Shown here: piece by piece, positions 799 to 50,911 of the stretch
How the letters are laid out: the number at the start of each line of letters is the position of its first letter
Position numbering within the stretch: position 1 is the first letter of the stretch
DNA from: Naegleria gruberi
Taxonomy: Eukaryota
DNA length: 64,000 nucleotides
Direction: 5' to 3' (one strand)
Assembly (NCBI GenBank): GCA_000004985.1
Contig: GG738888.1
Position numbers and translations under genes: made by a program
Notes under the pieces: generated by a model
The model's database searches: none
What the model saw: the letters and a program-made list of their open reading frames with translations, nothing else
What the model was told of the DNA's origin: nothing

Positions 799-1404
799 TT
801 ATATTGTTATAACATTAGTTTTTCCATCCATATTAATAGAACTATCATCTAATCCTTCAACTTGTGTCAAATGTTGTGAAACTCTGCAAAATGAATGAGT
901 AAATGAAATATATTGAACTGTCAAAAACATTAACAATTGGACAAGTAACATGAACAACACTCCATACATGATTTGCTTTTGTGAATAGTACAACAACTTG
1001 AAAAGACTCACAACACTTGTGGCAATATAAAATAAAACATTGAGAATGTGTTTTCCAAATCCAATTACTACATTCATGACAATGACATGAGTTTTAAATT
1101 TCTTTTTCCTTGGTGTGATCATGGATAAATCTTCATCTCCATCCACTTGCCATGATGGTAATAAAGAAATATTTGTTTGAACTTTGATTGTTTTATCATC
1201 GGCTACTTCTTTTCTATATAGATAAGCTGAATAGGTCAACCATAAAATTAACACAATTAACAATGAATAGGGGTAGATATCTTGTATGTAATTATAGATC
1301 AGAAAGATGGATTCAAAGGAAAGTGGTTGGAGAACGGAAAGTATTTTGAGTGAGATGGATTGTGTAGAGCAAATTCCTCGAATGACTGATGAAGCAGCTG
1401 ACAT
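799..1404 (-). CDS. hypothetical multi-pass membrane protein
   Basis: 201-aa ORF with ATG at 1404 preceded by an A-run; several hydrophobic helices; no recognisable family. Confidence 0.35.
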   Translation of the reverse strand: MSAASSVIRGICSTQSISLKILSVLQPLSFESIFLIYNYIQDIYPYSLLIVLILWLTYSAYLYRKEVADDKTIKVQTNISLLPSWQVDGDEDLSMITPRKKKFKTHVIVMNVVIGFGKHILNVLFYIATSVVSLFKLLYYSQKQIMYGVLFMLLVQLLMFLTVQYISFTHSFCRVSQHLTQVEGLDDSSINMDGKTNVITI

Positions 1405-2131
1405 TTTTTTTTTGGAATTGAAATCAAAGAAGTGTTTTCACATTATGTTTATTTGAATGATTTCACAGTGAAAATTCATCATTCAAATTATGGAGATATT
1501 GTAAAATTATCTTGAATATAACTTGAAGATGAAAATCCAATCTCCATTAGTCATCCCAATATTACTATTGACCATGCAGGACAATACTGCATTGATGGAA
1601 TTTGTCATGATGAAGTGTATGTGCTTTAATGATATTGGAAATCCTGCAAGGTAATTACTGGACAAATATTGAAAGTAATGATGAGAACGTTGTTAGGAGT
1701 GCAAATAAACAATACTAATCGAAGAAAGTGTTTGAAATGGTCAAGTACATGTTCTTGTATTTTAAAAAGTAAATTTTCAGCAACTAATATCATCATGATA
1801 ACTTTGATGAAACTATTAGGAGAGAATTTTCCCCCTGATAGAATTGATCATGCTGAACAATCCAAATATATTGTGATGGTTTTCCGAATGACCAAGTACA
1901 TCTGGAAGTGATGATAATTTTCCCAATATAAATTACTATTATATTGATAATGAATATCATTCATGATGGTTGGTATTTGTTTCAACATTGACTATTACTA
2001 CTATTCACATGATGAGGAGATGAAACGTGAAAGTATTGGTTCCTATACTTGCAATATTTTTAAAAGCTCCAATTTTTTAAAAATTGTTTTTGAAGAGATG
2101 TTGGGAAATTCACATCTTGTTGACTGACTTG

Positions 2132-4366
2132 TCATCTTCTTCTAATTTCAGAGCTTCTATCATATTCTTCTGGTCCCTCATACTGGGTAATAAAACTAAT
2201 TGTGGACATTAGTTCTTCCTCAGTCAAGCTTTCCTTTGGTAGATTTACAGACATCCATGCTGGAACACCATTTTCACAATTTACCATATGTGCATAATCT
2301 TCTAATTTTTCCTCCCATTGACGAGGTAAAACTTTGGCTATTGATGATACCTTTGAAAGATTTTTCAATAAGAATACCAACAATCTCATATTTGTATCGT
2401 CGTCATAAATTGGTGAGAGGGCAAGGAACGACTCTTGATTGGATGAATTCAATCTCTCACTTAACATGATCTTGCAACATTCCCTCATAATTTCCTTCAT
2501 TTCAAATATATGGCTCATTGAAAGAATGTAAATAAATGTCTGATCACTACACAGCCTTAAATTTGAATAATTACAATTACAAGCTTCTGAAAGAAGAATT
2601 CGAATAGCTTCTATTTTTTCAGTTTCTGCTCCAATTTCCTCACTCTTTACAAATTCAAAAACATCATAAGAAATCCTACTTGATGAATACTTTTCAAAAT
2701 ATACTGCAAGAACTGGACTCGATTTTGTTACTATTTGCTTATTGACCTGAATTTCAGTTCCCTTATCATCAATTATTAGAGTACAATCATAATTATGCTG
2801 TGAACACAACAGAATAGCATCTGACAATGAAAAAACTTGTGTGAAAATCTCTTCATTCCATGTCACTTCTATTGATTGAAATGATTGTTTGGATTCTTCA
2901 ATTCTTGAGGAAAGTTTAAGTAATTTTTCATCAGCTCCGTGAAGATATCGAACTTGAGTATAATTACTCTTAATAAAGGCAATGCATTTCTTTACAAGTA
3001 GCATGAGAATTGAATTGTGAGAATTTTTAAGAACCTTTCTCGACAAATAATCAGAAATTTGGTCAATTATTTGCATGACATTTTCTACTTGAATGAAAGT
3101 AGACAGTTTGGAAAATATGGTCTCTTTCAAATCAATTCCACAATCTCGAACATCATTCAATAAAAATAAAAATAATGTCAAACTCTTGATATCATCAAAG
3201 TACTTGGAGAGAAAGTTATCTTCATGAAAAATGTCAATACAAGACTGTTTCCCAGAATTAATATAAGGAATCACTTCACAAATGTATATGATTAATTCTC
3301 TAGATAATACCAGCTCATCACGTGAGAGACCTTTGATCAATTTTTCATTTTTGAACACTTTACAAAGGTCTGGTGAAATAATTTCAATGAGTGGAAAGTA
3401 AACTTGAAGATATGGTTCGTCCTCAATTTCCTCATTGATAACCACTAAATTATGTAGCAAGGATTTTGCATGATAATCAATTGTTGTTTTCTGGTTGGAA
3501 TATGTAACTGCAACTGTACATAAAGGGCCTACAAACACATCCAATTCCAAACTATTGTCAAAATCTAAATAGAGCCGTTCGAAATTGTCATCACCAACTG
3601 CCTCATGTGAAATAAAGTGATTTTGTGCAGTACTCCCAATTCCAAGTTTTCCAAATTGATTACTTCCAAACGATGTCAAGTATTTGTCAAAATGTAAATT
3701 GACTAAATGAGTTTCAGATGCCTCTACTTTGATTATCTTTGAATTAACACTGTTGAAATGTACAGATCCATAACAATGCTCATAGAAGAAATGAGGTAAA
3801 CTACTCCCAGACAAAGTAATCATGCCATACTTTTTCTCATACTTGTACTTCATTGATCCCCTATTAAAGTAAAAAGCAGGTTCTTCATTTCCCTTTGGTT
3901 GAGTACAATCAACAAAACCTGTCGATTTCACTCTAAAAGACTTGTATTTTGCAATTGCAAAAGGTGTATCTCCAATAATTGTCACTTTTTCCAATCCAAG
4001 TTTCAACCCGTCAAGTTTAAAAACTCTTCCATCATAGTACCAAGAAACAATTCCATCAAAATCCAAGAAAATTGAACATTGATAACCTAGAGCACAATGT
4101 CTAATACCCTTCTTGAAGATGGGCACTGGAAATCGTTTCATCTGACGATCTTGGGGTTGTAACAACTCTCCGAACGAATTCAATCCACACCCGAGAACTT
4201 GTCCCATTTGTGATCTGATGAGAACATTGTTATATTTCATTTCAACTTGAACAATTTCATCATCTGGATGATCAAGTAGATATTGAAAAAAAGGCACGGG
4301 TTGCAATGTATTTTCGTTTTGGTTAATGAAGGGAGTGAAGAAACCCTTGCCAACTCCGTATAACAT
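2132..4366 (-). CDS. RCC1-like repeat protein, possibly with C-terminal BTB-like region
   Basis: Long ORF; probable ATG at 4366 (MLYGVGKGFF; track start 4390 is TTG). N-terminal RCC1-type motifs (VLGCGLNSFGELLQP, SFGSNQFGKLGIGS); remainder unassigned. Confidence 0.4.
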   Translation of the reverse strand: MLYGVGKGFFTPFINQNENTLQPVPFFQYLLDHPDDEIVQVEMKYNNVLIRSQMGQVLGCGLNSFGELLQPQDRQMKRFPVPIFKKGIRHCALGYQCSIFLDFDGIVSWYYDGRVFKLDGLKLGLEKVTIIGDTPFAIAKYKSFRVKSTGFVDCTQPKGNEEPAFYFNRGSMKYKYEKKYGMITLSGSSLPHFFYEHCYGSVHFNSVNSKIIKVEASETHLVNLHFDKYLTSFGSNQFGKLGIGSTAQNHFISHEAVGDDNFERLYLDFDNSLELDVFVGPLCTVAVTYSNQKTTIDYHAKSLLHNLVVINEEIEDEPYLQVYFPLIEIISPDLCKVFKNEKLIKGLSRDELVLSRELIIYICEVIPYINSGKQSCIDIFHEDNFLSKYFDDIKSLTLFLFLLNDVRDCGIDLKETIFSKLSTFIQVENVMQIIDQISDYLSRKVLKNSHNSILMLLVKKCIAFIKSNYTQVRYLHGADEKLLKLSSRIEESKQSFQSIEVTWNEEIFTQVFSLSDAILLCSQHNYDCTLIIDDKGTEIQVNKQIVTKSSPVLAVYFEKYSSSRISYDVFEFVKSEEIGAETEKIEAIRILLSEACNCNYSNLRLCSDQTFIYILSMSHIFEMKEIMRECCKIMLSERLNSSNQESFLALSPIYDDDTNMRLLVFLLKNLSKVSSIAKVLPRQWEEKLEDYAHMVNCENGVPAWMSVNLPKESLTEEELMSTISFITQYEGPEEYDRSSEIRRR

Positions 4367-4669
4367 TTTTTTTACATTAATGTTTTTCAAAGTTCCACTC
4401 TACGTCAGTTTTGATAAATTGTACCCACAATCTTCAAATGAAAAAAAAAGACTACAGCACCACAGGTTCCCAAGTTGTCTCCAACCTCAGTACTGATGTG
4501 GCTCGACGATGCTTAACTTCTCAAATCGGACGGGATGAGGTGCATTCATCGTGATATGGCCGTAGCCATAAACAATAGAAAAATCTTAATCATAAATAAT
4601 ACAATGTTAGGCTATAAAGCCAAATAGTTTTTTATTATGCTTTGTATTTGTTTCAAGAACAATTGAGAG

Positions 4670-5216
4670 TTAACACTTTTCAATCCATTTGGAAACAAAT
4701 TGACGATATTGTTCAGCAGTTTCTTCCAATTCTTCAACTGATTTCTTATTGGCACGATAAGTAATGAATGGTTCGCTCCATTCCAATTTACATCTGTGAG
4801 CGAGAGCTTTCAATGGATTCAACAAGTCATCGAGTGGAATCAAATTCTGACCCTCTGGAGTGTATGCCTCTTCAAAATTACCAGCTGTTACAGAAATCAA
4901 TAATGGTTTGCCCTCCAATTTCAATCCTTCCTCTCCATAACGAATATAGTACATTCTTGTGAATGTTTCATCAATCCATTGTTTCATGAAAGCTGGCATT
5001 GAGTACCATTGGATTGGAAATTGGAAGATAATTCTGTCTGCATTCAAAAGTTCTTTGGACATCAGAATTGGAATCAAACTTTTTACCATTCTCAGTAAAT
5101 AATTGATGCATGTTGATAATTTCAATATTGTCAAGAGTTGACAAGGCCTTGATCATTGAACGATTGGCTTGAGAGCTTTCAAATCTTTCGTGGAAGAAGA
5201 GGACAAGAGTAGACAT
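4670..5216 (-). CDS. flavodoxin-fold NAD(P)H:quinone oxidoreductase (KefF/MdaB/NQO-type), reading frame interrupted
   Basis: Track ORFs 4971..5216 and 4670..5134 in different frames together align along the KefF family (HQLF..., RIIFQFPIQWYSMPAFMKQWIDETF, LISVTAGNFEEAY). Removing one base from the T5 run at ~5080-5084 (plus strand) fuses them into one ~180-aa ORF. Confidence 0.55.
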
Positions 5217-9942: not shown

Positions 9943-11229
9943 ATGGCTCCAAAATTTACAGTGAAAGATCTTTCGTGTGATGAGTGGTTGGAAATTTGCA
10001 AGTTTTTGTCCCCTTGTGAAATGTTCAGATTGTCGCAATCTTGGAGACAGATGTATTTTCATGTGTTTAGAGAAGGAGATTCGGAAATGTTATTCGAATT
10101 GATCAAAAAAAAAGTTTCCGATGAATTTCAAAGAAAACAGAATAATAATGTATTTTTGAGTGATGAAGAGAAGGAATGGATGGCTAAGAAAGTGGAAAAT
10201 AGAAGAGATTGGAAGAATTTATTAAGAATTTATTTAAAGTTTAATTATTTGAAATTAGAAAAACATTCGAATGAATGTGTTGAATTTCTACTCTATCAAC
10301 CGTTCAATGCAATAATAACTGAATTGGATGAGAATGGGAATTGGATTCAACACATTAATTTGAACATATATCTCACTAGAAAACAAATGATAGATCCAGT
10401 TTTAATTCATGGTTACAGAGATAATGATGACAAGATCAGAGTTTTTCATTGGGAAAGACAAGATTCATCAAAACCTCCGAGAAGAAGAACATTTCGTGAT
10501 ACTATTGTTAATCATTTAGGAGTAATTGATGACCAGCGTAAGAAGCAATACTTTAGATCTCTTGTTTGGGATTGTAAGGATGGAAGAACTGAAAATCTCA
10601 TTCAAACACAAGAATTCATGATTCCCAATTTAGAAATACGAGAAACTTGTTTAGCACACCAACATGGAGGAGCTGTTTCCTTGAATTTCGGATCTTCAGA
10701 TCCGTCTGAAATAATTGTTAGAACTAATCCATTTTCTATTCGTCGTATTTTTTCAATTCGAACATTAATTAAGCAAGTATCATTTTATCATGATTTCATC
10801 ACACTTGGATTTCTGATATGGTTTGGATATAATTACCAGTACAAGTATGATTGTTTCAGACACGCCAAACAATTGTTATTCCTTCCATATAATCATATTG
10901 ATTTACAAGATCATGCTATGTATCAGCTATTTTACTCAATAGCATTTTGGAGTCTCTATTTGGGTTATGGGATTGGATTTGCGTTTCTTGGCACGTATTT
11001 TAGTCCTGGAGTAGTTACAATGTTAGTGAACTGGATTATTTACAAATATCTCGATAGTATTGAATATCCAGAAACAAGAGAACTGAGATCTCCTTGGAAT
11101 TTGCTCGCTGTTTTGGAGGCGTCTCAAACACTTTGGTGCATGGGATCTGTTGCAATATTTACAAGAAAAGTGTATACTTGGGGAAGATTTTGGAAAGATT
11201 CAATATTGGATTTAATAAGAAAGAAATAA
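9943..11229 (+). CDS. hypothetical protein with N-terminal F-box-like motif and hydrophobic C-terminal region
   Basis: ATG at 9943 after A7 run; LSCDEWLEICKFLSPCEMFRLSQSW F-box-like; C-terminal aromatic-rich TM-like segments. Confidence 0.45.
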   Translation: MAPKFTVKDLSCDEWLEICKFLSPCEMFRLSQSWRQMYFHVFREGDSEMLFELIKKKVSDEFQRKQNNNVFLSDEEKEWMAKKVENRRDWKNLLRIYLKFNYLKLEKHSNECVEFLLYQPFNAIITELDENGNWIQHINLNIYLTRKQMIDPVLIHGYRDNDDKIRVFHWERQDSSKPPRRRTFRDTIVNHLGVIDDQRKKQYFRSLVWDCKDGRTENLIQTQEFMIPNLEIRETCLAHQHGGAVSLNFGSSDPSEIIVRTNPFSIRRIFSIRTLIKQVSFYHDFITLGFLIWFGYNYQYKYDCFRHAKQLLFLPYNHIDLQDHAMYQLFYSIAFWSLYLGYGIGFAFLGTYFSPGVVTMLVNWIIYKYLDSIEYPETRELRSPWNLLAVLEASQTLWCMGSVAIFTRKVYTWGRFWKDSILDLIRKK

Positions 11230-11233
11230 AAGT

Positions 11234-11307
11234 TACGCCGTAAGGGAGTCGAACCCTTGACCTTCAGCGTGTAAAGCTGACGATCTAACCAACTGATCTA
11301 ACGGCGC
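11234..11307 (-). tRNA. tRNA-Val (anticodon UAC)
   Basis: 74-nt cloverleaf on minus strand: acceptor GCGCCGU/ACGGCGU (G1:U72 wobble), D-stem GAUC/GAUC, anticodon stem UCAGC/GCUGA, loop UUUACAC, T-arm AAGGG-UUCGACU-CCCUU, discriminator A, no encoded CCA. Confidence 0.75.
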
Positions 11308-11366
11308 TTACAGTGAGTTATTAAACAACATATTTGTTACCTTAATCCGCCTTAAAATAATTTATC

Positions 11367-12230
11367 TTACAAATATTTTTGGATTAGTTTTGTAATAGTT
11401 TCACGAGAATGGTCATCAGCTGCTTTACACGTTTTACAAATGAGTGTGTAAGGGTTTTTAACATTTTCATTCTTAATTATCATCACATTAAAATGTTCAC
11501 ATTCTATTTGTTTTCTTTCTTCTTTTTGAATTTCTGATATTGTTTCATTATCCAAAATTCCGAAACCCTTCTCACCAGCTGCTTTGAATAGTTTCATTTT
11601 CCCTCTCTTGTACGCATCAAATTCAATCTCACTTCTTGTTCCAATATAAGCTTTTCCTCTGATTAAAGTCCTCAATTTCATATTTCTATTGATGAATTTA
11701 GTTCTCTTATTCAAAAACTCCATATACAAGTTTTCGAATACTTGTTGTGAGTCCACTATCGAAGGCAACAATTCATCAGTTGCCTTTTTTTTCTTCTTCC
11801 TATTATTATTATCATTATTAATGGCTGTTCGAAATTTGAAAATATTTGTTGGATCGTTACTTTCCAGTATTCTTTCAAGACTTCCTTGAAAACGCATATT
11901 TTTATAGAGAGCAGCATGATCTGTTTCATTCTCTCCAGAAAATATATCAACAAAATCACGACTCAGAATAAATCTCTGAAATTCAATGGTATTCACAATT
12001 TCATACACTTTCTTATCAACTAGTAGAATAGAAGTGTACAATGATTTCAAATCTAAATATTGCAAAATCACATGCCATACTTCCGTCAAATGTATTTTTG
12101 TAAACTCAGTTTCTTGAGGTTTAAGCTTTGCAATAGGAGTTGATTTTTTCTTGTTTTTTGTTTGCTTATTCTTTTTAAAATTGTGTAGATTGATCAATTC
12201 CTCGTCATCCAACAAATCAAATGCAGACAT
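11367..12230 (-). CDS. hypothetical protein (F-box-like region; Lys/Asn-rich linker)
   Basis: 287-aa ORF, ATG at 12230 with A-rich 5' context; VWHVILQYLDLKSLYTSILLVDKKVY F-box-like. Confidence 0.4.
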   Translation of the reverse strand: MSAFDLLDDEELINLHNFKKNKQTKNKKKSTPIAKLKPQETEFTKIHLTEVWHVILQYLDLKSLYTSILLVDKKVYEIVNTIEFQRFILSRDFVDIFSGENETDHAALYKNMRFQGSLERILESNDPTNIFKFRTAINNDNNNRKKKKKATDELLPSIVDSQQVFENLYMEFLNKRTKFINRNMKLRTLIRGKAYIGTRSEIEFDAYKRGKMKLFKAAGEKGFGILDNETISEIQKEERKQIECEHFNVMIIKNENVKNPYTLICKTCKAADDHSRETITKLIQKYL

Positions 12231-13175
12231 TTTTTTTGAAAATGTTTTCTTTTCGTTGTTGAAGCGTAAAGTTCAAATTTTTATCTTCACCGATCTGCAA
12301 CTATTTTCTTAAATTTCTTTACAGTTAATTTCGCGCCAACTAAAAACCGCTGAAAGTTGTCTATTCTTACCGTTAAATATTCAACAAAAAAAAAACAATT
12401 ACTCATCATGATTTCATCACCATGAGGAAAGTTCTCCCTTTTCTTCCTTCCACATCAGCCATGACCACATTCAAACCATAACAACATCTATATAAATTTG
12501 CCTGCCATTTACCAGGAAGATGTTGGTACACATTATAGTGAAGGTTCATGAACCGAAGTACATTATTGCTAGAAGAACACGCATATAATTGATACTTTGG
12601 AACAGCCCTGTCTCACTCTCTTTGATATGTTTTTCTATTTTGTAAAGAAGGATTGACTGGTCTAGGTAAGAATAGTGAAAAGGTAACTTTGAAAGAATAT
12701 CGCTGGTGGATACATTGTGGAGAGTTTTGATTCTTTGGAAGAAATTCCAATCACTGAAGATTTATACCGATTAAAATAAACACTGTAACACTATCCATCT
12801 CAATTTAAGAAACTTTATTCTAATCTCTATAAAACAATTCCCAATTTAATACAACACAAATTACCCAAATTTCAATCAAAAACATTTCACACCTTCAACA
12901 AACTTTTTCATCCCTCACTTTTTATCTGAAACTTTTACTGTTTGCAAGTGAAACACGAAACACCAAATTGCACCTTCGCATTCTAAAAATAAAATTATAT
13001 CAATCATCAACATGTTCATCGCTTGTTCATAAAATGCAGACGCAATCAATGCTGATTATCACAGATCAAAAAAAAACGCAACAATTTTTCTTCGCGGCGA
13101 CGATTTTAATTTCTTTTTCCTATTAATTTCTTCTTTCTGTGCACACAACTACTTTTAAACCAACTCTCTCTGAAA

Positions 13176-34284: not shown

Positions 34285-36342
34285 TTAATGATGATTTCCC
34301 ATTGTTAATGAATAATTCTTATTGAGTATCTTATTTGTGGTTGTATACATTTCAAAGCTTACCAAAGGGGAAGTAATGAATGGCAATAGATTCCTTCCTG
34401 CCTCTCCCTTCTCCAACACTTTAAATCTCAAATTTTCCATGGCTAGACTTGCCAAAAATGGTTCATTGGTGTTAAATTTTCCCAATCTCAATGTCATGTA
34501 AATGCATTTCATGTTATATCGACAAGATTCCAATAAAAATTCTTCATCTATGAATGGTGCTTTTGCTGCAAGTCCCAATACATTCACGTTAATGTCATGC
34601 AGTTTCAATGTTTCTCTTACAATGTCCTTATCCAATTTGTCAGGACAATCAGGGAGAGTATATCCATCGTATTTGACAACTTGTAACATGAAGCTTTTAT
34701 CAGCTTTCAATTCATCAGCAAGATAGTAGAAACAAAAATGTTTCGTTTTGGAAATTAGTTTGAGCATGAATTCCTTGTCTTTTGCTAGGTGTTTGAATTT
34801 TCTCGACTGTAATAAACTAGGTTGCTTTCTAATCATTAACTCAATGACATCAGGATCATCACTTAAACTACTATACTTGTCTAGGACAGAAATGGAATTA
34901 CTGGCTGCTAGTAAAATTAAATCTCTTTCGTTTTTCAAACCTTTGGACGCGTGGAAAATGGATTGACCATCTTGTTGAACTGCAATTGAAACTACCTCTC
35001 TGTCATTCTTGAGTTCAGCAGAAACATGTTTGAGAATTTCAGGATTGAATTTTAAGGCTTTCATTACAAAAGTTTTGTCAGATTTCAATTCTGAAGTTTT
35101 GATAATGTCAGCACTTTCTCTGATAGCTTGAATCATGATATCTTGATCAGTTTTCAATTCGTTTCGTATGAGAGAGAAAACCTTATTTGGTTTGACAATT
35201 TTTAACAATCTCAAAACGAAACTCTTATTCTGTTTCAACTCGTGTGGAATCTTGTCGAGCATTTTAGGAAATCTAGAAATGGCAGCAATGGAAACATCAT
35301 GATCTCTCTTCACTTCTTCAAAGGCCAATTCATAGGTATTATTGGAGGGATCACATTGTTGAATGGCATCCAGGAAGAACCTCTTATTCTTTTTCAAATC
35401 ATCAGTTAAATATTTGAGAATTGTTGTCTTTTTCTCTGAAATGAGATATTGTAAAATGACTCTTCCATCAGTTTTGAATTTTTCAGGAACCTTTAAATGT
35501 AAATTATTGAGATTATATGCATTTCTGGTAAATTCCAAATCATTTTGCATTGTTTCCTCTATTATTGTTGAATATGGACAGCATCCATGTTTAAATCCTT
35601 CTAATATAATGTAGGGATCCTTCTTTAATTCTGGAGATAATCTATTGAATAGATCTTTTGCACTTTCCAAATTAGGAGACCTCTTTCCCATAATTTTAAA
35701 AGTAAAAAGTGCAAATTCTCTATCATTAAAGAACTGAGATGGTATATGTATGAAAAGTTCAGGTAAATGAGATGAACGTTCGACTGCTTGATAAATTACA
35801 TCTCTATCATTTCTAAAAGTATCAGAAACTGACTCATAGATACAAACATTATTTCGAATACTATCCAAAATGAACTGTTTCTCCTTTAGAAAATGGTCTG
35901 GAATTCCAGCAAATAATTTTCCAAAACGCAACAAATGCAAAACCACATCCCTATCATTCTTCAACTCATCTGACAAGTACGGAAAACACTGTTCATGATG
36001 CACATTAGCAAGTACCAACTCCTTATTTGCTCTCCATTCCAGTGGTACTTTCGATATTGTTAAATCTCCCATGACCAAAGGTATTTTACAACCCCAATAT
36101 TTTCTTCCCTTATTACGTCTGACTAGAATGTTGATGAGATGAGTGTCTTTCAAAATGACATGTCCAAAATGTTCAATCATGATTGAATACTCTTCCGAGC
36201 TGAATGTTTTAAATAGAAAGGAATCGAATTGAAATTTAGTTTTTAACAAATGGGAAGATGGTGTAGAGTCGAGTAGAATTTTCACACAAGCACCGGGAAG
36301 TGAATTTTCAAGTTTTGGCAGCATTATCAAGAGTTGACTCAT
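34285..36342 (-). CDS. DUF4116-type repeat protein (685 aa, >15 tandem KxDR[ED]vvLxAv units)
   Basis: Single ORF with ATG at 36342; repeats such as LKNDRDVVLHLL, FRNDRDVIYQAV, LKTDQDIMIQAI, LKNDREVVSIAVQQDGQS, LKNERDLILLAAS. Confidence 0.55.
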   Translation of the reverse strand: MSQLLIMLPKLENSLPGACVKILLDSTPSSHLLKTKFQFDSFLFKTFSSEEYSIMIEHFGHVILKDTHLINILVRRNKGRKYWGCKIPLVMGDLTISKVPLEWRANKELVLANVHHEQCFPYLSDELKNDRDVVLHLLRFGKLFAGIPDHFLKEKQFILDSIRNNVCIYESVSDTFRNDRDVIYQAVERSSHLPELFIHIPSQFFNDREFALFTFKIMGKRSPNLESAKDLFNRLSPELKKDPYIILEGFKHGCCPYSTIIEETMQNDLEFTRNAYNLNNLHLKVPEKFKTDGRVILQYLISEKKTTILKYLTDDLKKNKRFFLDAIQQCDPSNNTYELAFEEVKRDHDVSIAAISRFPKMLDKIPHELKQNKSFVLRLLKIVKPNKVFSLIRNELKTDQDIMIQAIRESADIIKTSELKSDKTFVMKALKFNPEILKHVSAELKNDREVVSIAVQQDGQSIFHASKGLKNERDLILLAASNSISVLDKYSSLSDDPDVIELMIRKQPSLLQSRKFKHLAKDKEFMLKLISKTKHFCFYYLADELKADKSFMLQVVKYDGYTLPDCPDKLDKDIVRETLKLHDINVNVLGLAAKAPFIDEEFLLESCRYNMKCIYMTLRLGKFNTNEPFLASLAMENLRFKVLEKGEAGRNLLPFITSPLVSFEMYTTTNKILNKNYSLTMGNHH

Positions 36343-36633: not shown

Positions 36634-37463
36634 ATGGATTTTCAAAAGGCTGCAACCAAGTTGAAGGAACGAGGCAATGAACACTTTAAAAAGAATGAAT
36701 TATCGGAGGCTATTAAATGTTATCAACAAGCCTTTGAACATGATGAAGATGCCTTCTTTAAAACAAACTTGGCTCTTTGTTATATTAAATTAAAACAATA
36801 TGAGAAGGCTACGGAGGAGTGTAAATCTGCAATCAAGTTGAATCCAAAGTTTGTAAAGGCTTATTTCTTGTTGGGAGAATGTCATTTGAATTGTTTGAAT
36901 TATGAGCAAGCTGAGAGTGCTTATTTGAAAGCTGAAGTATTGGCTAAGGAATTACATAATACATCCAAATCTATATTGCTGAATATTTATAAAGGAGTCG
37001 ATAGATCGAGAGCAAGGAGATATGAGAAACAAGAACAGGAGAGACAATCAGTAGTTGCAGAATTGAAAAAGTATGTCGAAAAGACGATGGACAATTATGA
37101 AAATATGGAATGGTCAAATCATCAACTGAAAGAGAAGAGTTTAATCTGAAAAAGTTTCAATTAGAGTCCTTCTTTGAACAGAATTTGCATCCACACAAGG
37201 AAACTGAAGTCCCAGATGTTTTGTGTTGTAAAATAACCTATACTATTATGAGAGATCCTGTCATTACAACATCAGGTATAACTTATGAACGATCTGCCAT
37301 TGAGAAACATTTACGAGAGAATGGAACGTTCGATCCTGTAACTAGACAACCTTGTACAATATCACAACTTTATCCAAATTTAGCTGTTAAAGAAATGGTG
37401 GAATCTTGGATTGAGAAACATCCTTACACAATAACAGAAGATCACTACTATATAATGGATTAA
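36634..37463 (+). CDS. CHIP/STUB1-like E3 ubiquitin ligase (3 TPR + coiled coil + U-box), frame interrupted
   Basis: ORF 36634..37149 has TPR repeats (KERGNEHFKKNELSEAIKCYQQA...). ORF 37110..37463 has the U-box (PDVLCCKITYTIMRDPVITTSGITYERSAIEKHL...DPVTRQPC), very close to metazoan CHIP. Adding one A to the A3 run at 37129-37131 fuses them (~276 aa). Only a 26-nt non-canonical GT..AG is available as an intron. Confidence 0.65.
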
Positions 37464-37492: not shown

Positions 37493-40400
37493 CTATTGAC
37501 CTTCAATAATGAGTCTCGATTTTAGAGAGCTCAAAATGGTGCTTATTATGGTAAATGATGGACGTTGTTTTGGATCAGAATTCCAACATTGTGTCATTAA
37601 CTTGATGAACTCTCCAACAATATTTCTAAATCTTTCCTTGCATTGGTCTCGATCGAGTGGAACATCACTACTAGAAAAATCATACTCTTGCACATAGGAG
37701 CTCAAATAGGAATCCATTTCTGTATCATTGCTGAAGGGAATAACTGGTCGTTCTCCTTTTAGAACTCTTGGTAGCACTGTGAAGGGAGAAACTTCATTCT
37801 GTCTCGCTTGTGTAATCTTGGTGTTTTTTGTGTGAATGTATGGATTCTCCTCAAAGAATAATTCATACATGATGATCGCAAAACTGAAAACATCAATGGA
37901 TGGAGCTAGGGTGGAACTTGTATGAGATAGTTCAGAATCTAAAAGTTCTGGAGCTATATAGAATAAAGTGCCCATTCCTGTTGTGGTGTTTGTTTGGTTA
38001 TTACCATTCATTAGTCTACTCAATCCAAAATCGCAAACTTTTGCAGTATTATTCGAATCTAGAAGAATGTTTCCAGGTTTTAAATCTCTGTGAATAATTG
38101 GTGGTTTCAGACTGTGCAAATATTCCATTCCACATGCAACATCAATCAGAAGTGATAATTTAGAAATCAAGTCTAGAGAAATCTCACCCTTCCTACATTG
38201 ACTTATTAAATTCTCAATACTTCCCTTCTCCAAATACTCAACCACAAGATAGTGTTTTTTCGGAGTGATTGAAATTCCATAAAACATTAAAACGTTTGGA
38301 TGACGTAATTTGCACAATAGAGATGCCTCCTTTTCAATGTCATCTCTCAATGCATAATTTTCCACATCAACTCTTAAACATTTGATTGCAACAGTATTGT
38401 GATCCCAACGACCTTTAAAAACTACTCCAGATCCACCCTCTCCAATCTTCTTTTCTATAAACAGCTTATCCAATGTAATTATAAAAACAGCACCACTCTT
38501 TGAAGAACTATCATCACTATTTCTGAGATCTTCCTGTGCATCCACAATGTCATTTTCCAATAATCTCTTTTCAATGTCCTTTTCAGCACGTTCTCTACCC
38601 CTCCAATATCGAATAATTTTAGCTAATTTGTAAACTCCATATCCAACACCTGATAATATAATTAGCAAGCTACAAAATGCGAAAAAGGAAGCTACCACAG
38701 CAACGATAATGATGGACTCATAATTTGGCTTGACCTTACAGATAAATGATGATTCTGAACCATAAGTTGCTGGTGTTGATTCATAATCAACTGGACAAGG
38801 TATAATCTCCAATGGAATATCACTATTCGCATGAAAGAATGAGAGTGTGAGAGATGCCTTAATTGGTTGTGTGAATTGCCTCTCAGAAACTGTAATGAAA
38901 ATTCCCTCCACCACTTCAGAAACTCGTGTCTGTTTGGGAATGGTTGCAGTGATCGAGTCAGTACTCACTGAATTAGAATACACTTCCCACATGTACTCTA
39001 CTGAATTTCCAAAAGTGTCCTTGGATGTCGGTTTCAATGTAAATCTCTGTCCTGGAAAGAGAGTTACCACTCCATTCATTGGTTCAAAATCTCCACTCAA
39101 TTTTCCATTAATTTCTTTAGAGACTTGCCAAGTGATTTGTCTAATTGAGGATCCTATATTTCCACCATAGTTTAGAGCACTATTTCCAGTAAAGTTGCTC
39201 TGCAGAAATTCTTTCTTGACAATTTTGTGGAAGAAAATTCCTCCACCAGAGTAGTCAGCTTGATTATCCGAAATTTCCACATCTTCCCAAAGGCAAGCTA
39301 GAGTATCATATTTCAGGTTGAATGAAATTGCTCCTCCTCTCAATGCTCTGTTCATATGGAATTTGGAGGAATAAATTGCAAACTTGGTATGGAAACCTGT
39401 TCCCGTAAAACTCAAAGCACCTCCATTTCCAAGACATTTCGTTGAGGAGCACATTAAACTGGATGTGATGTTTTCAGTGAGTACTGAATTATTTACAAAG
39501 AGTGTTTCATAGGATGAGAAATTGCCTGAACAGAGTATAGCACCACCACTATTTTTTGCTGTATTTGATCGAAATACTGATTCTCCAATTGCTATATTCG
39601 AATCTATTCCACTAATGGCTCCTCCTCCTGCTGATGAATAATTTTCAATAAACTCTGAAAGGAATACGATGATATCACTCCCATAGGATGAGAGAGCTCC
39701 ACCAGTCTTACCATTTCTGTTTCTAATAAATTTCGAGGAGGTAACCAGAGTTTTGTGAGAGGAAAGTGAGCTGGACAATATAGCTCCTCCCAAGACAGAT
39801 ACGTTATCTGTGAAAGTAGATTCGACAATATAGGTTGCTACTACATTGCTCAACAGTAAAACTCCAGTAGAACCTCTATTATGGGCAAATATGCATCTTC
39901 TCACAATGACATTCCTCGAATTTCTAACAGTGACAATGCTTCCCTCTGTATTTTGACTTCCAACGAATTGACAATCTTGAAATTGGACCTCAATTGATTC
40001 TCCAATTGTTATAATATTTCCATTTGATTTGCCAAATATTGTGTGAGAAATTCTGACAACATTCGAGAAGAGAATATTCAAACTTCCATCATTAATTGTA
40101 CTCGTTTTCGTATTAACCAAGCAACCAATCATCACAATCTCCTTAACTTCCTCTATAAATACCAATTTGTCAATATTTATAGTCCCATTGAGGAACCACA
40201 TATTTGTGGCAGCCAATGTGAACTGATCTAGAAAGAAAGACAACTCAGACTCTGTAAATATCGAAATCTCTTCATATTTAAACTCAACTACAGGTCTCGA
40301 ATCATCAAAATCATATCTAACCTTCTTAAATAATGAAAGATGAGCGTCAGTTTCAAATTGTCCACTAATTTTCGAATTTTGCACAATGACATAATTTCCA

Positions 40401-41134
40401 AGAAATTTCCCACCTTTTAGTGTGCAATTTTCAATAAATGCATTTCGATTCTGTTGTAATATTTGCAAATTGAAACCCTTGAATATTGTAACTGCCTTAT
40501 CAAAGGTTTCTCCATAATCAATAAAATATGATTCACAATTAATTGTGGAATTGATCTTGCTTTCCAATTCGATGAATAGTTTGATATCACGCAATAAATT
40601 ATTTGTGGTTAATTCTTGAATTTTCAAATTGTTTTGACAATTATTCGAAACTATATCCGATTCCACATTAATTTTCATGTAAATGATGGCACCGGGACGT
40701 TCCACAGATGGAACATTTCCTATTTGATATTCAATTTCATTCGTAAAATAATTAATTAATTCCTTCATTGATGAAAAACTAATTGTTGAATTTAAAGTGG
40801 ACGAAACATTCGAAAAGGTATATTCGAAATCCAAAGATAAACAATTTACACTAAAAATTGATTCCTCCCGTTGTGTTTTACAAATTTCGTATTCCATCAC
40901 TTTCGAATATTGTGCCATATTTAATAATCTCGTAACCTCTACTTCTGCATTCGAATAGCCTTTATCCGCCGATAGAAATGAAGGTAGTTTATAATTGGTA
41001 TCAAATGGTGAAATGTAATCGGAAAGAGAATAATTAGAAATTGAAATTATATTCGAAGGTCCAATAACCACTAAAAGAAGCAAAATAAACACACTAGAAG
41101 GTGTCAGTGTTTCGTTTCTGTATATTGTAGTCAT
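37493..41134 (-). CDS. receptor-like protein kinase with Pmp-type (FxxN / GGA[ILV]) parallel beta-helix ectodomain, TM helix, TKL kinase domain; single exon
   Basis: 1213-aa ORF; signal peptide; at least 7 tandem units with FxxN followed by GGAI/GGAL; TM IIIVAVVASFFAFCSLLIILSGVGYGVY; kinase motifs VAIKC, HRDLKPGNILLD, CDFGLSR, FYIAPE. Kinase domain paralogous to 19331..23826 (YLHSLKPPIIHRDLKPGN in both). Confidence 0.7.
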   Translation of the reverse strand: MTTIYRNETLTPSSVFILLLLVVIGPSNIISISNYSLSDYISPFDTNYKLPSFLSADKGYSNAEVEVTRLLNMAQYSKVMEYEICKTQREESIFSVNCLSLDFEYTFSNVSSTLNSTISFSSMKELINYFTNEIEYQIGNVPSVERPGAIIYMKINVESDIVSNNCQNNLKIQELTTNNLLRDIKLFIELESKINSTINCESYFIDYGETFDKAVTIFKGFNLQILQQNRNAFIENCTLKGGKFLGNYVIVQNSKISGQFETDAHLSLFKKVRYDFDDSRPVVEFKYEEISIFTESELSFFLDQFTLAATNMWFLNGTINIDKLVFIEEVKEIVMIGCLVNTKTSTINDGSLNILFSNVVRISHTIFGKSNGNIITIGESIEVQFQDCQFVGSQNTEGSIVTVRNSRNVIVRRCIFAHNRGSTGVLLLSNVVATYIVESTFTDNVSVLGGAILSSSLSSHKTLVTSSKFIRNRNGKTGGALSSYGSDIIVFLSEFIENYSSAGGGAISGIDSNIAIGESVFRSNTAKNSGGAILCSGNFSSYETLFVNNSVLTENITSSLMCSSTKCLGNGGALSFTGTGFHTKFAIYSSKFHMNRALRGGAISFNLKYDTLACLWEDVEISDNQADYSGGGIFFHKIVKKEFLQSNFTGNSALNYGGNIGSSIRQITWQVSKEINGKLSGDFEPMNGVVTLFPGQRFTLKPTSKDTFGNSVEYMWEVYSNSVSTDSITATIPKQTRVSEVVEGIFITVSERQFTQPIKASLTLSFFHANSDIPLEIIPCPVDYESTPATYGSESSFICKVKPNYESIIIVAVVASFFAFCSLLIILSGVGYGVYKLAKIIRYWRGRERAEKDIEKRLLENDIVDAQEDLRNSDDSSSKSGAVFIITLDKLFIEKKIGEGGSGVVFKGRWDHNTVAIKCLRVDVENYALRDDIEKEASLLCKLRHPNVLMFYGISITPKKHYLVVEYLEKGSIENLISQCRKGEISLDLISKLSLLIDVACGMEYLHSLKPPIIHRDLKPGNILLDSNNTAKVCDFGLSRLMNGNNQTNTTTGMGTLFYIAPELLDSELSHTSSTLAPSIDVFSFAIIMYELFFEENPYIHTKNTKITQARQNEVSPFTVLPRVLKGERPVIPFSNDTEMDSYLSSYVQEYDFSSSDVPLDRDQCKERFRNIVGEFIKLMTQCWNSDPKQRPSFTIISTILSSLKSRLIIEGQ

Positions 41135-41252: not shown

Positions 41253-44200
41253 TTACAATTTGAAGGCAGCAGTCATGATGGATTCAATTTCCTTCAAATG
41301 GTCATACTTCAAACCAGTAGCTGGAGCAGAGGCAGCATTTCTACCAATATATTTGATAAGGTTATATCTGTTATCACCGTGGACAACAGTATTGATTGCC
41401 TTATTAAGTCTTGGAGCAACATAGGTCTTTGAAGAATATTAATAAAAACAAAATACTATGGAAATTATATACTTACATAGGCACCCATGTTTTCATGTTC
41501 TTCTTGAATCCAAGTCCAGTTAACAGTCTTCATCCATTCCTTGTCCCATTTGTCCATAACTTGATATAATTGTTCGAATGGGAATGGACTCAATTGTTCC
41601 AATCTGATAATCATAACTTCATTTTCCATATTCTTCTTGGCTCTTTCTTCAAACAAGTCATAGTAAATCTTACCACTACAGAAAAGAACCTTCTTAACCT
41701 TTGTGATATTAGCATGTTTGTAATCATCAGTCAAAACTCTTTGGAAGATGGTTCCTTCATCGAATTCAGACAAATTGCTGACACATTCCTTCTTCTTCAA
41801 GAGAGTCTTTGGTGAGAAGACAACGAGTGGTTTTCTGAACTTTCTCTTCATTTGTCTTCTGAGAACGTGGAAGTAATTAGCAGGTGTAGTACAATTGACA
41901 ACACACATATTAACTCTCTTTTGAACAAGTTCGTCAGTGTTAATATCACTGTCACATAATTGGAGGAATCTTTCAATTCTACCACTTGAATGTTCTGGAC
42001 CAGCTCCATCATAACCATGTGGTAAGAGAAGAGTCATACCACTGCATAAACACCATTTGTCTTCACCAGAATTGATGAAAGTATCAATGATGATTTGAGC
42101 ACCATTAAAAAAGTCACCAAATTGCATTTCATTGACAGAGAAATTGTTTGGATTATCAATAGTATAACCATATTCAAAGCCCATAACAGCAAATTCAGAA
42201 AGTGGAGATTGAGCCAATTCAAATCTTCCTCTAGCACCTGGAATGGCATCCAAAAGTGGGAGAACTCTCTTTTCTGATTCTTGATCTACAAATTCCAAGT
42301 GTCTTTGATTGAAAGTACCTCTGATAACATCTTGACCACTCAATCTGACAGTATAACCTTCATCCAAGAGGGAACCAAAGGCCATAACTTCAGCAGTTGC
42401 CCAATCAACATTAACATCCTTATTATCCTTTTGGAGAGCTTGTAATCTTGAACCAATGTGATGCTTTTCCAAATGCTTGTGAACATTAAATCCTTCAGGA
42501 ATCTTGACACTGAAAATGGCAATTTCCTTCAGTCTATCAATATTGTAACCAGTCATTGGAAGAGAAAGCTTTGAAAAGTCAGAAGCTTGAATAATATTAT
42601 GCCAATCTCCGAGGAAATAACGCTTTTCTGGCTTGTATCCTTCAACTGCCTTGAATTCAGCATCCAAATATTGATTACATTTATCCTTGATTTGTTGAAC
42701 TTCTTCAGTAGTGACAATATTCTTACCAATCAAATCTTCAGTGTAGGTAGCTGGGAATGTTGGCTTCTTTCTAATAACTTGGTACATCTTTGGTTGAGTG
42801 AATGCAGGTTCATCCAATTCATTGTGACCATGTCTTCTATAACCAACCAATTCAACAATAATATCCTTAGCGAACTTATTTCTGTATTTAGCAGAAATGC
42901 TCATAACCTTCTTAACAGCTTCAACATCTTCAGCATTGACAGCAAGAATTGGACAACCAACCATTTTACCAACATCTCCTGAATATCTTGTACTTCTGGA
43001 AAGAGTTGGAGAGGTTGTGAAACCAATTTGATTGTTCAAAATAATGTGAATAGTACCACCAGTTCTGAAAAGTGGCAATCTAGATAAGGTAAATGTTTCA
43101 GCAACGATACCTTGACCAGCAAATGAAGCATCACCATGCATTAAGATACAAGCAGCATTAGAACCATGACTTTGCTTGGCACGAGTCTTACCAAGAGCAA
43201 CAGGATTGATAGCTTCAAGGTGAGATGGATTATTCAAGAGATGGAGTTGCACCTTCTTATTATGATAATCAAGTTCAGTACTAACACCAAGGTGAGACAA
43301 GACATCACCAGTGGCAACCAATTCCTCAGGGAATTCACTATATCCCTTAACCTTATGGAAGAGAGCTCTAGTTGGGAAATTCAATAAACCAGTCAAGAGA
43401 TTTAATCTACCTCTGTGTGGCATACCCAAAATAATATCGGAAATATCACTATTGGCCAATTCTTCAAAAACAACATCCATAGCATAAATCATTGATTCAC
43501 AACCTTCCAAACCATATCTCTTAACAGATGGGAACTTTTTAGCCATGAAATGATCAAAAGCTTCACTTTCAACCATTAAAGACATGGCTCTCTTTTGTTC
43601 TTCATTGGTCATGTGATCGGCTTGCAATGATTCCAATTGTTTAGATAACCACATTTGTTCCTTTGTAGTTTCCAAGTGAGAGAATTGAGCAGCAATATTT
43701 CCACAATAAACATCTCTCAAGTGATCAACAATTTCAGGAATGGTTGCTTGTTTCTTTGGTATGGTCTTTTCACCAATATGAACAATACCATCAATATCAA
43801 CTGGTGTAGTTCCCAATGATTCTATATCCTTTAAATGATAAACTCCGGGATTTAATTCAATAGTTGTTCCTCTTTTTTGTTATCAGTATGATGATGATGA
43901 TGATTTTTAATATTAAATAATAATAATAATATTAAACAATAGTAATATTATTGTAAATATTAATATTTTGATCAAAATAATTGTCATCAAATATGATTAA
44001 ATAATATCAAAACAACCTACTTTTTAGGAACATTCAATCCGAGAGGATCAATATTAGCTTCCAAATGTCCATAATTTCTATAGGCTCTCACCATTGAATG
44101 AACTCTACACAACAATTCATCCTTACTCACAGCAGAGGAGGAAGCATAACATCTCATGGCAGTTGCAATAAATTCCTGTTGGAGAAGTTGATGAGAAGTT

Positions 44201-48390: not shown

Positions 48391-50911
48391 TTATACAACT
48401 TGATTTGCTTGTTTGAGTTTTTCAATTTCTTGTTTGAGAAGTTCATTTTCATTTCTGAGTGTGGATATTTCATTACTCAAGAGTAAGTTTTCTTGTTTTA
48501 GGGTTGTGTTTTGTTGAATAATATCATAATAGTTGATTAATTGTTGAATATTGAGAAGATCATCCAGTTCCTTGTGAATATTTTCAGAATAATCATTAAT
48601 TTCACCACGGAGATATTTTGTTAAATTGTCGATAATAATCTTGTAAGTAAAGCAGTCCAATCTTTTACGAGGATCTCTTTGAATCATGGTGATGAGACAT
48701 CTGGTAAGTATTTCATTCACACCCCAAGATTTGTTAATCTGCTTATCAATGGTCATTCTTATGGCATGGTGCACTCTCATTTCTCCCTCAGCTGTTACAA
48801 CAGCGCTGTGAAAATATAATCCCTCCTCTGAACTAAAATATGTGAAATTCGAATCAAATTGTGAAATGTCAGTACCTCCAATAAATTGTTTGCTTACTTT
48901 CAACAAACAATCAGTCAATAATTCCAAAAATATACATCCTAATGAAAAGATATCTGATGCTGTTGAAATCTCCCTCTTGTTTTGAATTAATTTCTCCTGA
49001 TATTCATGAACTAAATGTTGTTCGTTGGATTTTTCATAGGTTGAATCTGAAACCTCTGGAGCCATATAAGTATACTTTCCCACATTGATTGTAATTGATT
49101 TTCCTACTTCAATAACTCTCGATTGATCAAAATCAATAATCTTAAACTTGTCACCAATTTTTAAAATATTATTAGGATCCAAATCTCTATTATAATTATA
49201 ATAATAATAAATATTAAAATAATTACCTATGTGCAATGTTTTGATTGTGAACTGATTGGACTGCCTGAAGGATTTTTGCAAACATTTCCAGTACCTCAAT
49301 CATTTTATCCTTTTCCAAGGATGTTCCAACTCCGCTGCTATGGTTTCTTTCTATAATATTTCTTAAAGTTTCTTCACCCAACTCCATGATGGAAAATAAA
49401 TGTTTCGTCTTAATCTTATCTTGACCATATTCCAGAATACCACATTCAAAACAATTAATCTTTCCATCAATTTGTCTCTTTAAGAATTCAATTTTAGCAT
49501 CCATCTTTTTCATGTCATACTCTGGTTGGAATTTAATCTTTACAGCAACAAAAACTTCTCTACGTTTATCAAAAGCTTTGAATACTACACCCTCACCTCC
49601 AAATCCTAAAGAAGAAATCAACTCGTAATTTTTAACTTTCTTCTGCGTAGTAAAAATTTGGAACGACGAAATGACCTTCTTACTGTCACCTGTTGTTTTC
49701 ATATACTCGCTTATCAGCATTTTCCAATCCCAGTTTGGATTTTCATGTTTCAAAATTCGCTTAATAAGAAATACAATTCCAGGGTGTTCCTTTTTCGAAT
49801 AGTGGTGATAGGGAAAATCGTCGACTATCGTCTTTAGAGCTTCCTTAAAGTGTTTTTTACCAACAGGATGTTTAGGTGACTTGGATTCTATATGTTGTTC
49901 CAACTTTATGCAAAATAAGTGGTAATCCAAATCCGCAATTGTTTCAGTTTCAATTTTCAAACTACTTTCGTTCAGTTTCTTCAAAATCATCAGCATGGCA
50001 AATGTTTGCACAAATTTCACACTATAGGTAAATGAAGAAAATATTCCTTTTGAAATAATTTCAGGTTTCTTATCTTGAAAAAGAAAAGGAATCAATCCAC
50101 TCTCATCCAAAGTCTCCTCCTTAAATGCATTCATTACTGTTTTTAAATTTCCGTGGAATATAATCAATTTATCTGCCTTACAAGGATTTCCCTTTGGCAA
50201 ATATTTGAAAACTCTATAATTCAAAGCTACAGCCTCCAACACAACTTGTCGATCAGTCTTTAATTCCTCAGAAGCAAACATGAATGAGAAAGGCTCATGT
50301 TGAATGGCCATAAACACAACTTCCTTATCCCTTCTCAATTCTTCAGAGGCACTTTTGAAAGCAATTCTATCACTCTTCAAAGCTAACATGACAATTTCCC
50401 TATCATTTCGAAATTCATCTGAAATGTCCTGAATAGCACCAGGAGCACTCTGAATGGCTGCCATGACAACTTCCCTGTCCTTCTTCAATTCATCCCCGAC
50501 CAAAAACAACTCCGAAGCTGCTGCATTATTTTGATTATCCTCTTTTTCATGATTTTGTTGTGAATGATGATGCTGATGATTTTTAAAAGCAGGTGCCGAT
50601 GAAGAATTCTCATCAATTCGTTTTTTAGTCAAAGCCGCCAAAACTACTTGTTTATCGTGGCGCCATTTTTCTGAAATTAATTTCAATGAAAAATCAAATT
50701 TTACAGCTGCGTATTGTAGTATGAAATTTCTATCCAATTCTTCCCGCGCTTTTTCAGAGCTTATCTGCAAGACTTGAGCTGATTTACTCTTTTCCAAGGC
50801 TTGGAGAAGAAAGTCACGATCATTCCGAAGTTCGTCTGGTAGTTTGGCATAATTATATGAGGTTGGATTTTGGATAATATCTTTCAGGTAGCGTTCTCTA
50901 CCTGGAGCCAT
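48391..50911 (-). CDS. DUF4116-repeat protein kinase (N-terminal KxDREvv repeats, C-terminal atypical kinase domain and coiled coil), 2 exons
   Basis: Exon1 50911..49227 (ATG in A-rich context; repeats LRNDRDFLLQAL, LKKDREVVMAAI, FRNDREIVMLAL, LRRDKEVVFMAI, LKTDRQVVLEAV; then LGFGGEGVVFKAFD...VAVKI). Intron 49226..49187 (GTAATT..ATAG, 40 nt) again inside HR|D (IAHR|DLDPNN). Exon2 49186..48391 has DFD instead of DFG, MAPE, and a C-terminal heptad coiled coil. Confidence 0.65.
49187..49226 (-). other. spliceosomal intron (40 nt, GTAATT...ATAG) in DUF4116-kinase
   Basis: Restores IAHR|DLDPNN; phase 2, same position/phase as intron 19887..19933. Confidence 0.65.

Follow-up and report, generated by a model that had tools for sequence, protein, structure and literature searches.

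A Pmp-type beta-helix joined to a TKL-type kinase: a candidate receptor kinase family in Naegleria

The polymorphic membrane proteins (Pmps) of Chlamydia are type V autotransporter adhesins, and Pmp-like proteins of Trichomonas are eukaryotic surface proteins carrying the same repeat (cited in PMC10715098). Plant kinases of the RLK/Pelle family and the TMKs of Entamoeba histolytica are organised in another way, with a signal peptide, a modular ectodomain, one transmembrane (TM) segment and a cytoplasmic Ser/Thr (TKL-like) kinase. Each of them is a lineage-specific family; the ectodomain is a leucine-rich repeat (LRR), lectin, LysM or malectin module in plants and is made of Cys-rich repeats in Entamoeba. 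Most Raf-like and MLK kinases are cytoplasmic, MAP3K-like proteins devoid of ectodomain and TM segment. Here we describe, in a 64,000-nucleotide (nt) stretch of Naegleria gruberi DNA (contig GG738888.1 of assembly GCA_000004985.1, called the window hereafter), a gene whose product joins a Pmp-type beta-helix to a TM segment and a kinase of the TKL group.

This gene (37493..41134, minus strand) is a single uninterrupted and intronless frame of 3642 nt and 1213 codons. By exact-sequence look-up, its product is N. gruberi XP_002673827.1 / EFC41083.1 (NAEGRDRAFT_80827, UniRef D2VPY1), carried on a scaffold of 351,708 nt and named in databases just 'hypothetical protein / protein kinase domain-containing protein'. 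We consider, with a probability of about 0.7, that it is a type I single-pass receptor-like Ser/Thr kinase sensing a surface ligand through the beta-helix. The sequence architecture, the membership of the repeat family, the predicted fold, the intact catalytic motifs and the conservation of the architecture throughout the genus are shown here; topology, ligand class and activation by clustering are inferred. The gene and the parts of its product are as follows.

37493..41134, minus strand: complete coding sequence of the proposed receptor kinase (1213 amino acids (aa) and stop codon); single open reading frame (ORF), identity to the NCBI protein
41045..41134, minus strand: probable signal peptide, residues 1-30, with the hydrophobic core SVFILLLLVVIG at about 14-25 (Kyte-Doolittle peak 2.38, windows from 14-15)
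40268..41044, minus strand: N-terminal ectodomain region, residues 31-289, with 5 Cys and several N-x-S/T sequons (family alignment A1)
39149..40267, minus strand: predicted right-handed parallel beta-helix of about 13-14 coils, residues ~290-662 (alignment-based structure model)
39152..39814, minus strand: eight coils with canonical FxxN / GG[AGN][ILV] motifs, residues 441-661 (motif positions, shuffle test, Chlam_PMP and POMP_repeat models)
38735..39148, minus strand: membrane-proximal all-beta stalk (Ig-like sandwich), residues 663-800 (invariant columns of A1; strands of the model, with a predicted local distance difference test score (pLDDT) of ~70-94)
38630..38716, minus strand: single TM helix SIIIVAVVASFFAFCSLLIILSGVGYGVY, residues 807-835 (hydropathy peak 3.02; hydrophobic segment at the same place in every family member)
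38459..38629, minus strand: basic stop-transfer/juxtamembrane segment KLAKIIRYWRGRERAEKD, residues 836-892 (sequence; family conservation)
37535..38458, minus strand: TKL-type Ser/Thr protein kinase domain, residues 893-1200 (Pkinase, PK_Tyr_Ser-Thr, motifs, PDB relatives)

The first-pass annotation of the window, made from the letters alone, had claimed at least seven tandem FxxN/GGA[ILV] units and quoted six of them. Counting the pattern [FIVL]xx[NS]-x(2-9)-GG[AGN][ILVF], we find eight FxxN/GG[AGN][ILV] units at residues 441-661, with GG at 449, 478, 504, 530, 571, 600, 630 and 657 and a period of 26-41 residues. All six quoted peptides are present (FIRNRNGKTGGALS at 469-482, FIENYSSAGGGAIS at 495-508, FRSNTAKNSGGAIL at 521-534, FHMNRALRGGAISF at 592-605, ISDNQADYSGGGIF at 621-634 and FTGNSALNYGGNIG at 648-661), and two units come in addition, FTDNVSVLGGAIL at 441-453 and one formed by FVNN at 546 and GGAL at 571. 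Chance clustering of the motifs is ruled out by shuffling the ectodomain, which yields 0.08 units on average and reaches eight in 0 of 5000 shuffles. The profile searches proposed as a check in that annotation point the same way: Pfam Chlam_PMP (PF02415) scores 34.0 bits for a gathering cut-off of 20.6 and NCBIfam TIGR01376 (POMP_repeat) 25.6 for a cut-off of 15, both above the curated thresholds. FxxN is followed by GGA after 4-5 residues, with one exception, and GGA by the next FxxN after 12-17. In chlamydial Pmps, the corresponding distances are 4-5 and 14-18 (12-23) residues (PMC11166332), so that the spacing of motifs in the Naegleria protein fits the chlamydial pattern. The exception is the unit 546-575, where a Cys562-x4-Cys567 loop (LMCSSTKCLGNGGAL, nt ~39410-39499) is lodged between FVNN and GGAL, directly before the latter. 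Six family rows of A1 cover this region, and five of them keep the pattern CxxxxCxGxGGA; model confidence is lower there (pLDDT ~72-76), and the loop is a candidate for a disulfide-stapled surface loop.

The structure of the ectodomain was predicted with AlphaFold from an alignment (A2) in which the window ectodomain was combined with those of six family members and with 35 Pmp-repeat segments collected by exhaustive search. The resulting model has a predicted template modelling score (pTM) of 0.70 and a pLDDT mostly of 85-98 over residues ~300-807, whereas the single ectodomain sequence gives a mean pLDDT of 37 and is uninformative: a confident beta-helix appears only with homologues. Residues ~290-662 form a regular solenoid with three strands per coil. 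FxxN strands lie at 415-417, 440-442, 468-470, 494-496, 520-522, 545-547, 591-593, 620-622 and 647-649, with more degenerate coils upstream; canonical motifs thus occur in only 8 of the ~13-14 coils, those at the C-terminal side. The repeat region is thus predicted to be a right-handed parallel beta-helix, in line with the right-handed beta-helix that the first-pass annotation expected within residues ~350-700, but its extent has to be corrected to ~290-662. The model superposes on solved right-handed beta-helices such as the alginate epimerases AlgG (27.4, 2.6 A over 294) and AlgE4, PL6 lyases and NosD, as well as on the adhesins Vag8, PfbA (pneumococcal) and UpaB (autotransporter), and Foldseek matches include tailspikes and a polygalacturonase. 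In the PDB sequence search, no match was obtained with the ectodomain and none with the family profile. The model is consistent with the independent hidden Markov model (HMM) evidence, and Pfam Beta_helix (PF13229) is also found in relatives of the protein. Both a repeat-model match and a predicted beta-helix, the two properties on which the first-pass annotation had staked its reading, are present.

The beta-helix is flanked by two regions of different kinds. On the membrane side, the stalk domain carries invariant residues of A1, P694-G695-Q696 and C780-P781...C799. Foldseek returned the Ig-like domains of the S-layer protein SbsC with a probability of 1.0 over ~100-185 columns, and these matches probably belong to the stalk. 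On the other side, residues 31-289 can be aligned solely among Naegleria paralogues and orthologues (P0005 and P0154 in A1, see below) and found neither Pfam nor PDB sequence matches; residues 1-290 remain below a pLDDT of 50 in both structure models. In total, 12 N-x-S/T sequons and 14 cysteines are located upstream of the TM segment.

Hydropathy analysis displays exactly two hydrophobic segments, at 14-30 and 807-835, the second one being the single TM helix claimed by the first-pass annotation. The first would be the signal peptide (residues 1-30), presumably cleaved. The TM helix is directly followed by a very basic stretch, KLAKIIRYWRGRERAEK, and from this flank and the positive-inside rule we infer that the kinase is placed in the cytoplasm. 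A juxtamembrane motif, YW-x-[RK]-R-[DE]-x-AEK, is common to the family members P0005, P0154, P0009, P0052 and P0057.

The kinase domain matches Pkinase over residues 894-1195 (6.3e-54) and PK_Tyr_Ser-Thr (2.9e-50), and has an insert of ~50 aa in the C-lobe. Judging from its motifs, GEGGSG (898-903), VAIK (K918), HRDLKPGN (1015-1022), DFG (1035-1037), APE (1061-1063) and DPKQRP (1187-1192), all catalytic motifs are intact and the predicted enzyme is catalytically competent and of the RD type; its activation segment is rich in Thr (DFGLSRLMNGNNQTNTTTGMGTLFYIAPE). Among PDB sequences, the best match is CTR1 (5.5e-42), followed by TNNI3K, ZAK/MLT, TAK1, Roco4 and B-Raf, all of which we take to be TKL kinases of the Raf-like/MLK kind. 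Kinases of Naegleria and Acrasis come first among the relatives in the large protein collection, before plant Raf-like kinases (EDR1) and proteins named 'TKL/DRK protein kinase'. By match ranking, the kinase is thus assigned to the TKL group, as the first-pass annotation had it, closest to Raf-like/MLK. SOBIR1 is the only plant RLK kinase among the top 60 PDB matches and, with 7.9e-31, lies ~11 orders of magnitude behind CTR1, which suggests a position outside the plant RLK/Pelle family.

Is this protein an isolated case? When the ectodomain was compared exhaustively by HMMER with 1.84 billion representative proteins, 2669 proteins were found at E<=0.001, only a handful of which align across most of the ectodomain. 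A word-indexed search found, with the ectodomain alone, the protein itself and one weak match, and, with the family profile, missed the Naegleria paralogues. The family consists of N. gruberi NAEGRDRAFT_70310 (P0005, E 1.5e-90) and NAEGRDRAFT_76450 (P0009, truncated by the contig end), N. fowleri FDP41_011595 (P0006/P0154), N. lovaniensis C9374_001708 (P0105) and two metagenome fragments (P0052 and P0057). In all six, a hydrophobic segment and then a kinase domain follow the ectodomain, while a kinase domain was found in none of the remaining proteins among the 156 retrieved out of the 2669. The ectodomain shares ~25-35% identity with that of the window protein in A1, invariant residues being clustered in the last Pmp coils, the P-G-Q (694-696) and the C-P...C (780/781, 799). 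That the order of ectodomain, TM and kinase is kept in spite of such divergence argues for selection on the fused architecture.

Two other loci belong here. In N. fowleri (VFQX01000067.1, 2067-5800 of L003), a gene model of 629 aa with Chlam_PMP stands directly upstream of FDP41_009158 (530 aa, TM and kinase). By tblastn, homology to the window protein runs colinearly through a frame change and covers its residues 427-665 and 772-1205, and the two models are probably one Pmp-helix receptor kinase divided by annotation. An environmental contig (L002; ENA ERZ929261, k127_291569) bears at 1325-5025 a full-length family member colinear with residues 267-1209, cut into three genes by a prokaryotic gene caller and adjoining a Ras/Roc GTPase gene. 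At the loci with the nearest kinases in Acrasis kona (L004) and N. lovaniensis (C9374_008101, L005), tblastn detected no Pmp region. On present evidence, the architecture appears limited to Naegleria and unassigned environmental contigs.

With chlamydial Pmps, the Naegleria protein shares the alternating FxxN and GGA[ILV] motifs with matching spacing, the matches to PF02415 and TIGR01376, a predicted right-handed three-faced beta-helix and, presumably, exposure at the cell surface. Unlike them, it is eukaryotic, anchored by an alpha-helical TM segment and coupled to a kinase predicted to be cytoplasmic. No Pfam family for the Pmp middle domain was found at E<=1 over the whole protein, a Naegleria-specific beta-sandwich being predicted at that position, and no autotransporter beta-barrel (PF03797) was matched in Pfam and NCBIfam scans, the C-terminus being occupied by the TM helix and the kinase. 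Lacking both middle domain and barrel, the protein is excluded from the chlamydial Pmp autotransporter family itself. With plant RLKs and Entamoeba TMKs, it has in common the predicted overall layout and the confinement to one lineage; its ectodomain is a Pmp beta-helix in place of the plant modules. As its kinase is nearer to Raf-like/MLK than to RLK kinases, independent assembly is suggested. With the Raf-like/MLK kinases (CTR1, EDR1, ZAK, TAK1, Dictyostelium/oomycete DRK), it shares the HRDLKxxN catalytic loop of RD type.

How could such a receptor work? In chlamydial Pmps, the conserved residues of the motifs face the interior of the helix and serve its structure (PMC11166332); by analogy, the motifs of the eight C-terminal coils would supply core residues of a rigid rod, leaving its variable surface and loops available for binding. 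The beta-helix would offer a long solvent-exposed surface to an extended, probably polymeric ligand, the likeliest candidates being glycans or surface structures of prey bacteria, of particles or of other cells. In view of what solved beta-helices bind and of the bacterivorous lifestyle, a polymeric surface glycan appears the most plausible. Multivalent binding, or contact, would cluster the receptors, and the clustered kinases would trans-phosphorylate their Thr-rich activation loops and trigger an intracellular phosphorylation cascade. The combination of RD type and an activation segment rich in Thr suggests activation through activation-loop phosphorylation. In a more specific and decidedly speculative version, the Naegleria Pmp-helix kinases would be genus-specific pattern-recognition receptors, linking bacterial surface polysaccharides (capsule, exopolysaccharide (EPS), lipopolysaccharide (LPS)) to a Raf/MLK-like kinase. 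If true, they would be an independently evolved counterpart of plant glycan-sensing receptor kinases, with a possible role in prey discrimination or in host-cell recognition by N. fowleri.

Several points weigh against a receptor sensing its ligand through the beta-helix. Signal peptide and topology are read from hydropathy, and residues 31-289 could be the actual sensing module. No known carbohydrate-binding or other ligand-binding family was matched in the Pfam and PDB sequence searches. AF2 is known to be prone to over-predict beta-solenoids in repeat sequences (bioRxiv 10.1101/2024.10.30.621056). Finally, the gene identifiers of the window protein and of its relatives occur in no paper of the literature searched, a collection that does not extend to ~1.4 million PMC manuscripts and most subscription journals.

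Among other explanations, an unlikely one is that of an adhesion or self-association receptor, whose beta-helices would bind one another, in cis or from cell to cell, or the substratum, the kinase reporting the contact. Pmp passenger fragments do oligomerise and their motifs are required for adhesion (PMC11166332), and the adhesins Vag8, PfbA and UpaB are among the closest structural matches of the model; yet the strong divergence of the family ectodomains suits diversified ligand recognition at least equally well.

A recent horizontal acquisition, in which the beta-helix of a bacterium (a Chlamydia-like amoeba symbiont or a planctomycete) was joined to a resident kinase, looks improbable to us. 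Amoebae do serve as hosts of Chlamydiae, and the top non-Naegleria match of the ectodomain is a Thermoguttaceae bacterial protein (P0007, E 2.4e-44), with a score spread over 18 repeat stretches at ~35% identity. However, comparable scores come from archaeal Methanosphaera (P0021), the green alga Caulerpa (P0018), Tetrahymena (P0170) and a contig with LRR and TIR domains, and no chlamydial protein is found among the nameable matches. Any transfer would also be old, given the 25-35% identity within Naegleria, and the base composition resembles that of the rest of the window.

The repeat is indeed widely distributed. The best matches outside the family to residues ~350-660 are multi-repeat proteins with ~30-35% identity and E-values down to 1e-44, and the closest sequence relatives of this region are Pmp-repeat/Beta_helix proteins such as a Tetrahymena 'transmembrane protein', adhesin-like proteins of Methanosphaera/Methanobrevibacter and the Thermoguttaceae protein. 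Among the best 150 relatives, those outside the Naegleria family carry neither a kinase nor the Naegleria N-terminal region nor the YPGQ/CP...C stalk. The best non-Naegleria match of the family profile, P0004 (1010 aa, Beta_helix and Chlam_PMP), is encoded at 10001-13033 of an apparently eukaryotic contig (L001; ENA ERZ25070786 ctg142885l), which carries a second Pmp/beta-helix gene at 510-1307 and also encodes LRR, LRRNT and TIR domains. Of the PF02415 proteins, less than one third come from Chlamydiae and nearly 200 from organisms other than bacteria (PMC11166332), and Pmp motifs have been reported in Trichomonas, Methanobrevibacter and Phycisphaerae (PMC10715098). With its nearest relatives in all three domains of life, the repeat is not specifically bacterial, and nothing points to a bacterial donor. 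The description as a 'bacterial adhesin-type beta-helix' in the first-pass annotation thus holds for the Pmp repeat and the fold, but 'bacterial' is too narrow. Its view of an unusual receptor design agrees with our data, a kinase being present only in Naegleria-type proteins among the best 150 of the 2669 ectodomain relatives.

The superposition on AlgG, AlgE4 and PL6 lyases raises the idea of a membrane-tethered pectin-lyase-fold enzyme (polysaccharide lyase, hydrolase or epimerase) in which the kinase would be secondary. We hold this for quite improbable: identity to pectin-lyase-fold enzymes is just 8-15%, no CAZyme-type Pfam family appears at E<=1 and no PDB chain is matched by sequence, and the sequence relatives are Pmp-repeat proteins, of which the characterised ones are adhesins and not enzymes.

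Least probable by far is that neighbouring Pmp and kinase genes were merged by mis-assembly or mis-annotation, or that bacterial DNA contaminates the locus, as the two adjacent N. fowleri gene models (629 and 530 aa) and the GC of 0.368 in the 38-40 kb bin, slightly above the window mean of ~0.33, might suggest: the frame of 3642 nt has no stop, the fusion recurs in at least five other genes from three species, conservation extends jointly over the membrane-proximal domain, the TM and the juxtamembrane motif on both sides of the junction, the N. fowleri split falls at a frame change, as an intron would give, with colinear homology spanning it, and the flanking genes are typically eukaryotic, so that a gene-fusion artefact is largely ruled out.

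The window as a whole is AT-rich (GC ~0.33), with long and closely packed ORFs, and Pmp-type motifs occur in no other window ORF of >=200 aa. The neighbours of the receptor kinase gene include genes for a 2-oxoglutarate dehydrogenase E1, a TPR and U-box protein, DUF4116 repeat proteins, an LRR protein and an Hsp70-like protein. The CHIP-like gene (TPR repeats, then U-box; 36634-37463, plus strand) is convergent with the receptor kinase gene, 29 bp separating their stop codons. Its coding sequence passes from one ORF (36634-37149) to an overlapping one in another frame (37110-37463), which implies a short intron. The 2-oxoglutarate dehydrogenase E1 gene (E1_dh, Transket_pyr, OxoGdeHyase_C) occupies 41465-43816 on the minus strand; as the listed ORF begins at TTG and the profile matches are incomplete at either end, more exons are probable on each side. 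Two DUF4116-repeat proteins are encoded on the minus strand, at 34285-36342 and 49223-50911. At its C-terminus, the latter carries half of a kinase domain, the N-terminal one (Pkinase 3.9e-06, short of the Pfam threshold), and is a possible DUF4116-kinase fusion whose remaining part would lie in another exon.

The protein and its Pfam domains were already public in databases; what is new is a receptor kinase, as we read it, with an undescribed sensor module. In the literature searched, we found no description of a Pmp/beta-helix receptor kinase, and searches on Naegleria yielded no paper describing a receptor kinase in this genus. The novelty of the design is tempered by the fact that ectodomain shuffling is the usual route of receptor-kinase evolution. 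The impression that a 'Chlamydia' Pmp repeat is a sign of bacterial origin is corrected by the distribution of its relatives. In Heterolobosea, a beta-helix repeat of cosmopolitan distribution and a kinase of the Raf/MLK kind would have given rise to receptor kinases independently. Few publications deal with how free-living and pathogenic Naegleria species sense prey, surfaces and host cells. The small, conserved and genus-restricted family of putative surface receptors defined here combines a predicted rigid beta-helix sensor with an intact kinase and has members in the brain-eating N. fowleri; its members are concrete candidates for the sensing of the environment, of prey or of hosts and for surface antigens in Naegleria.

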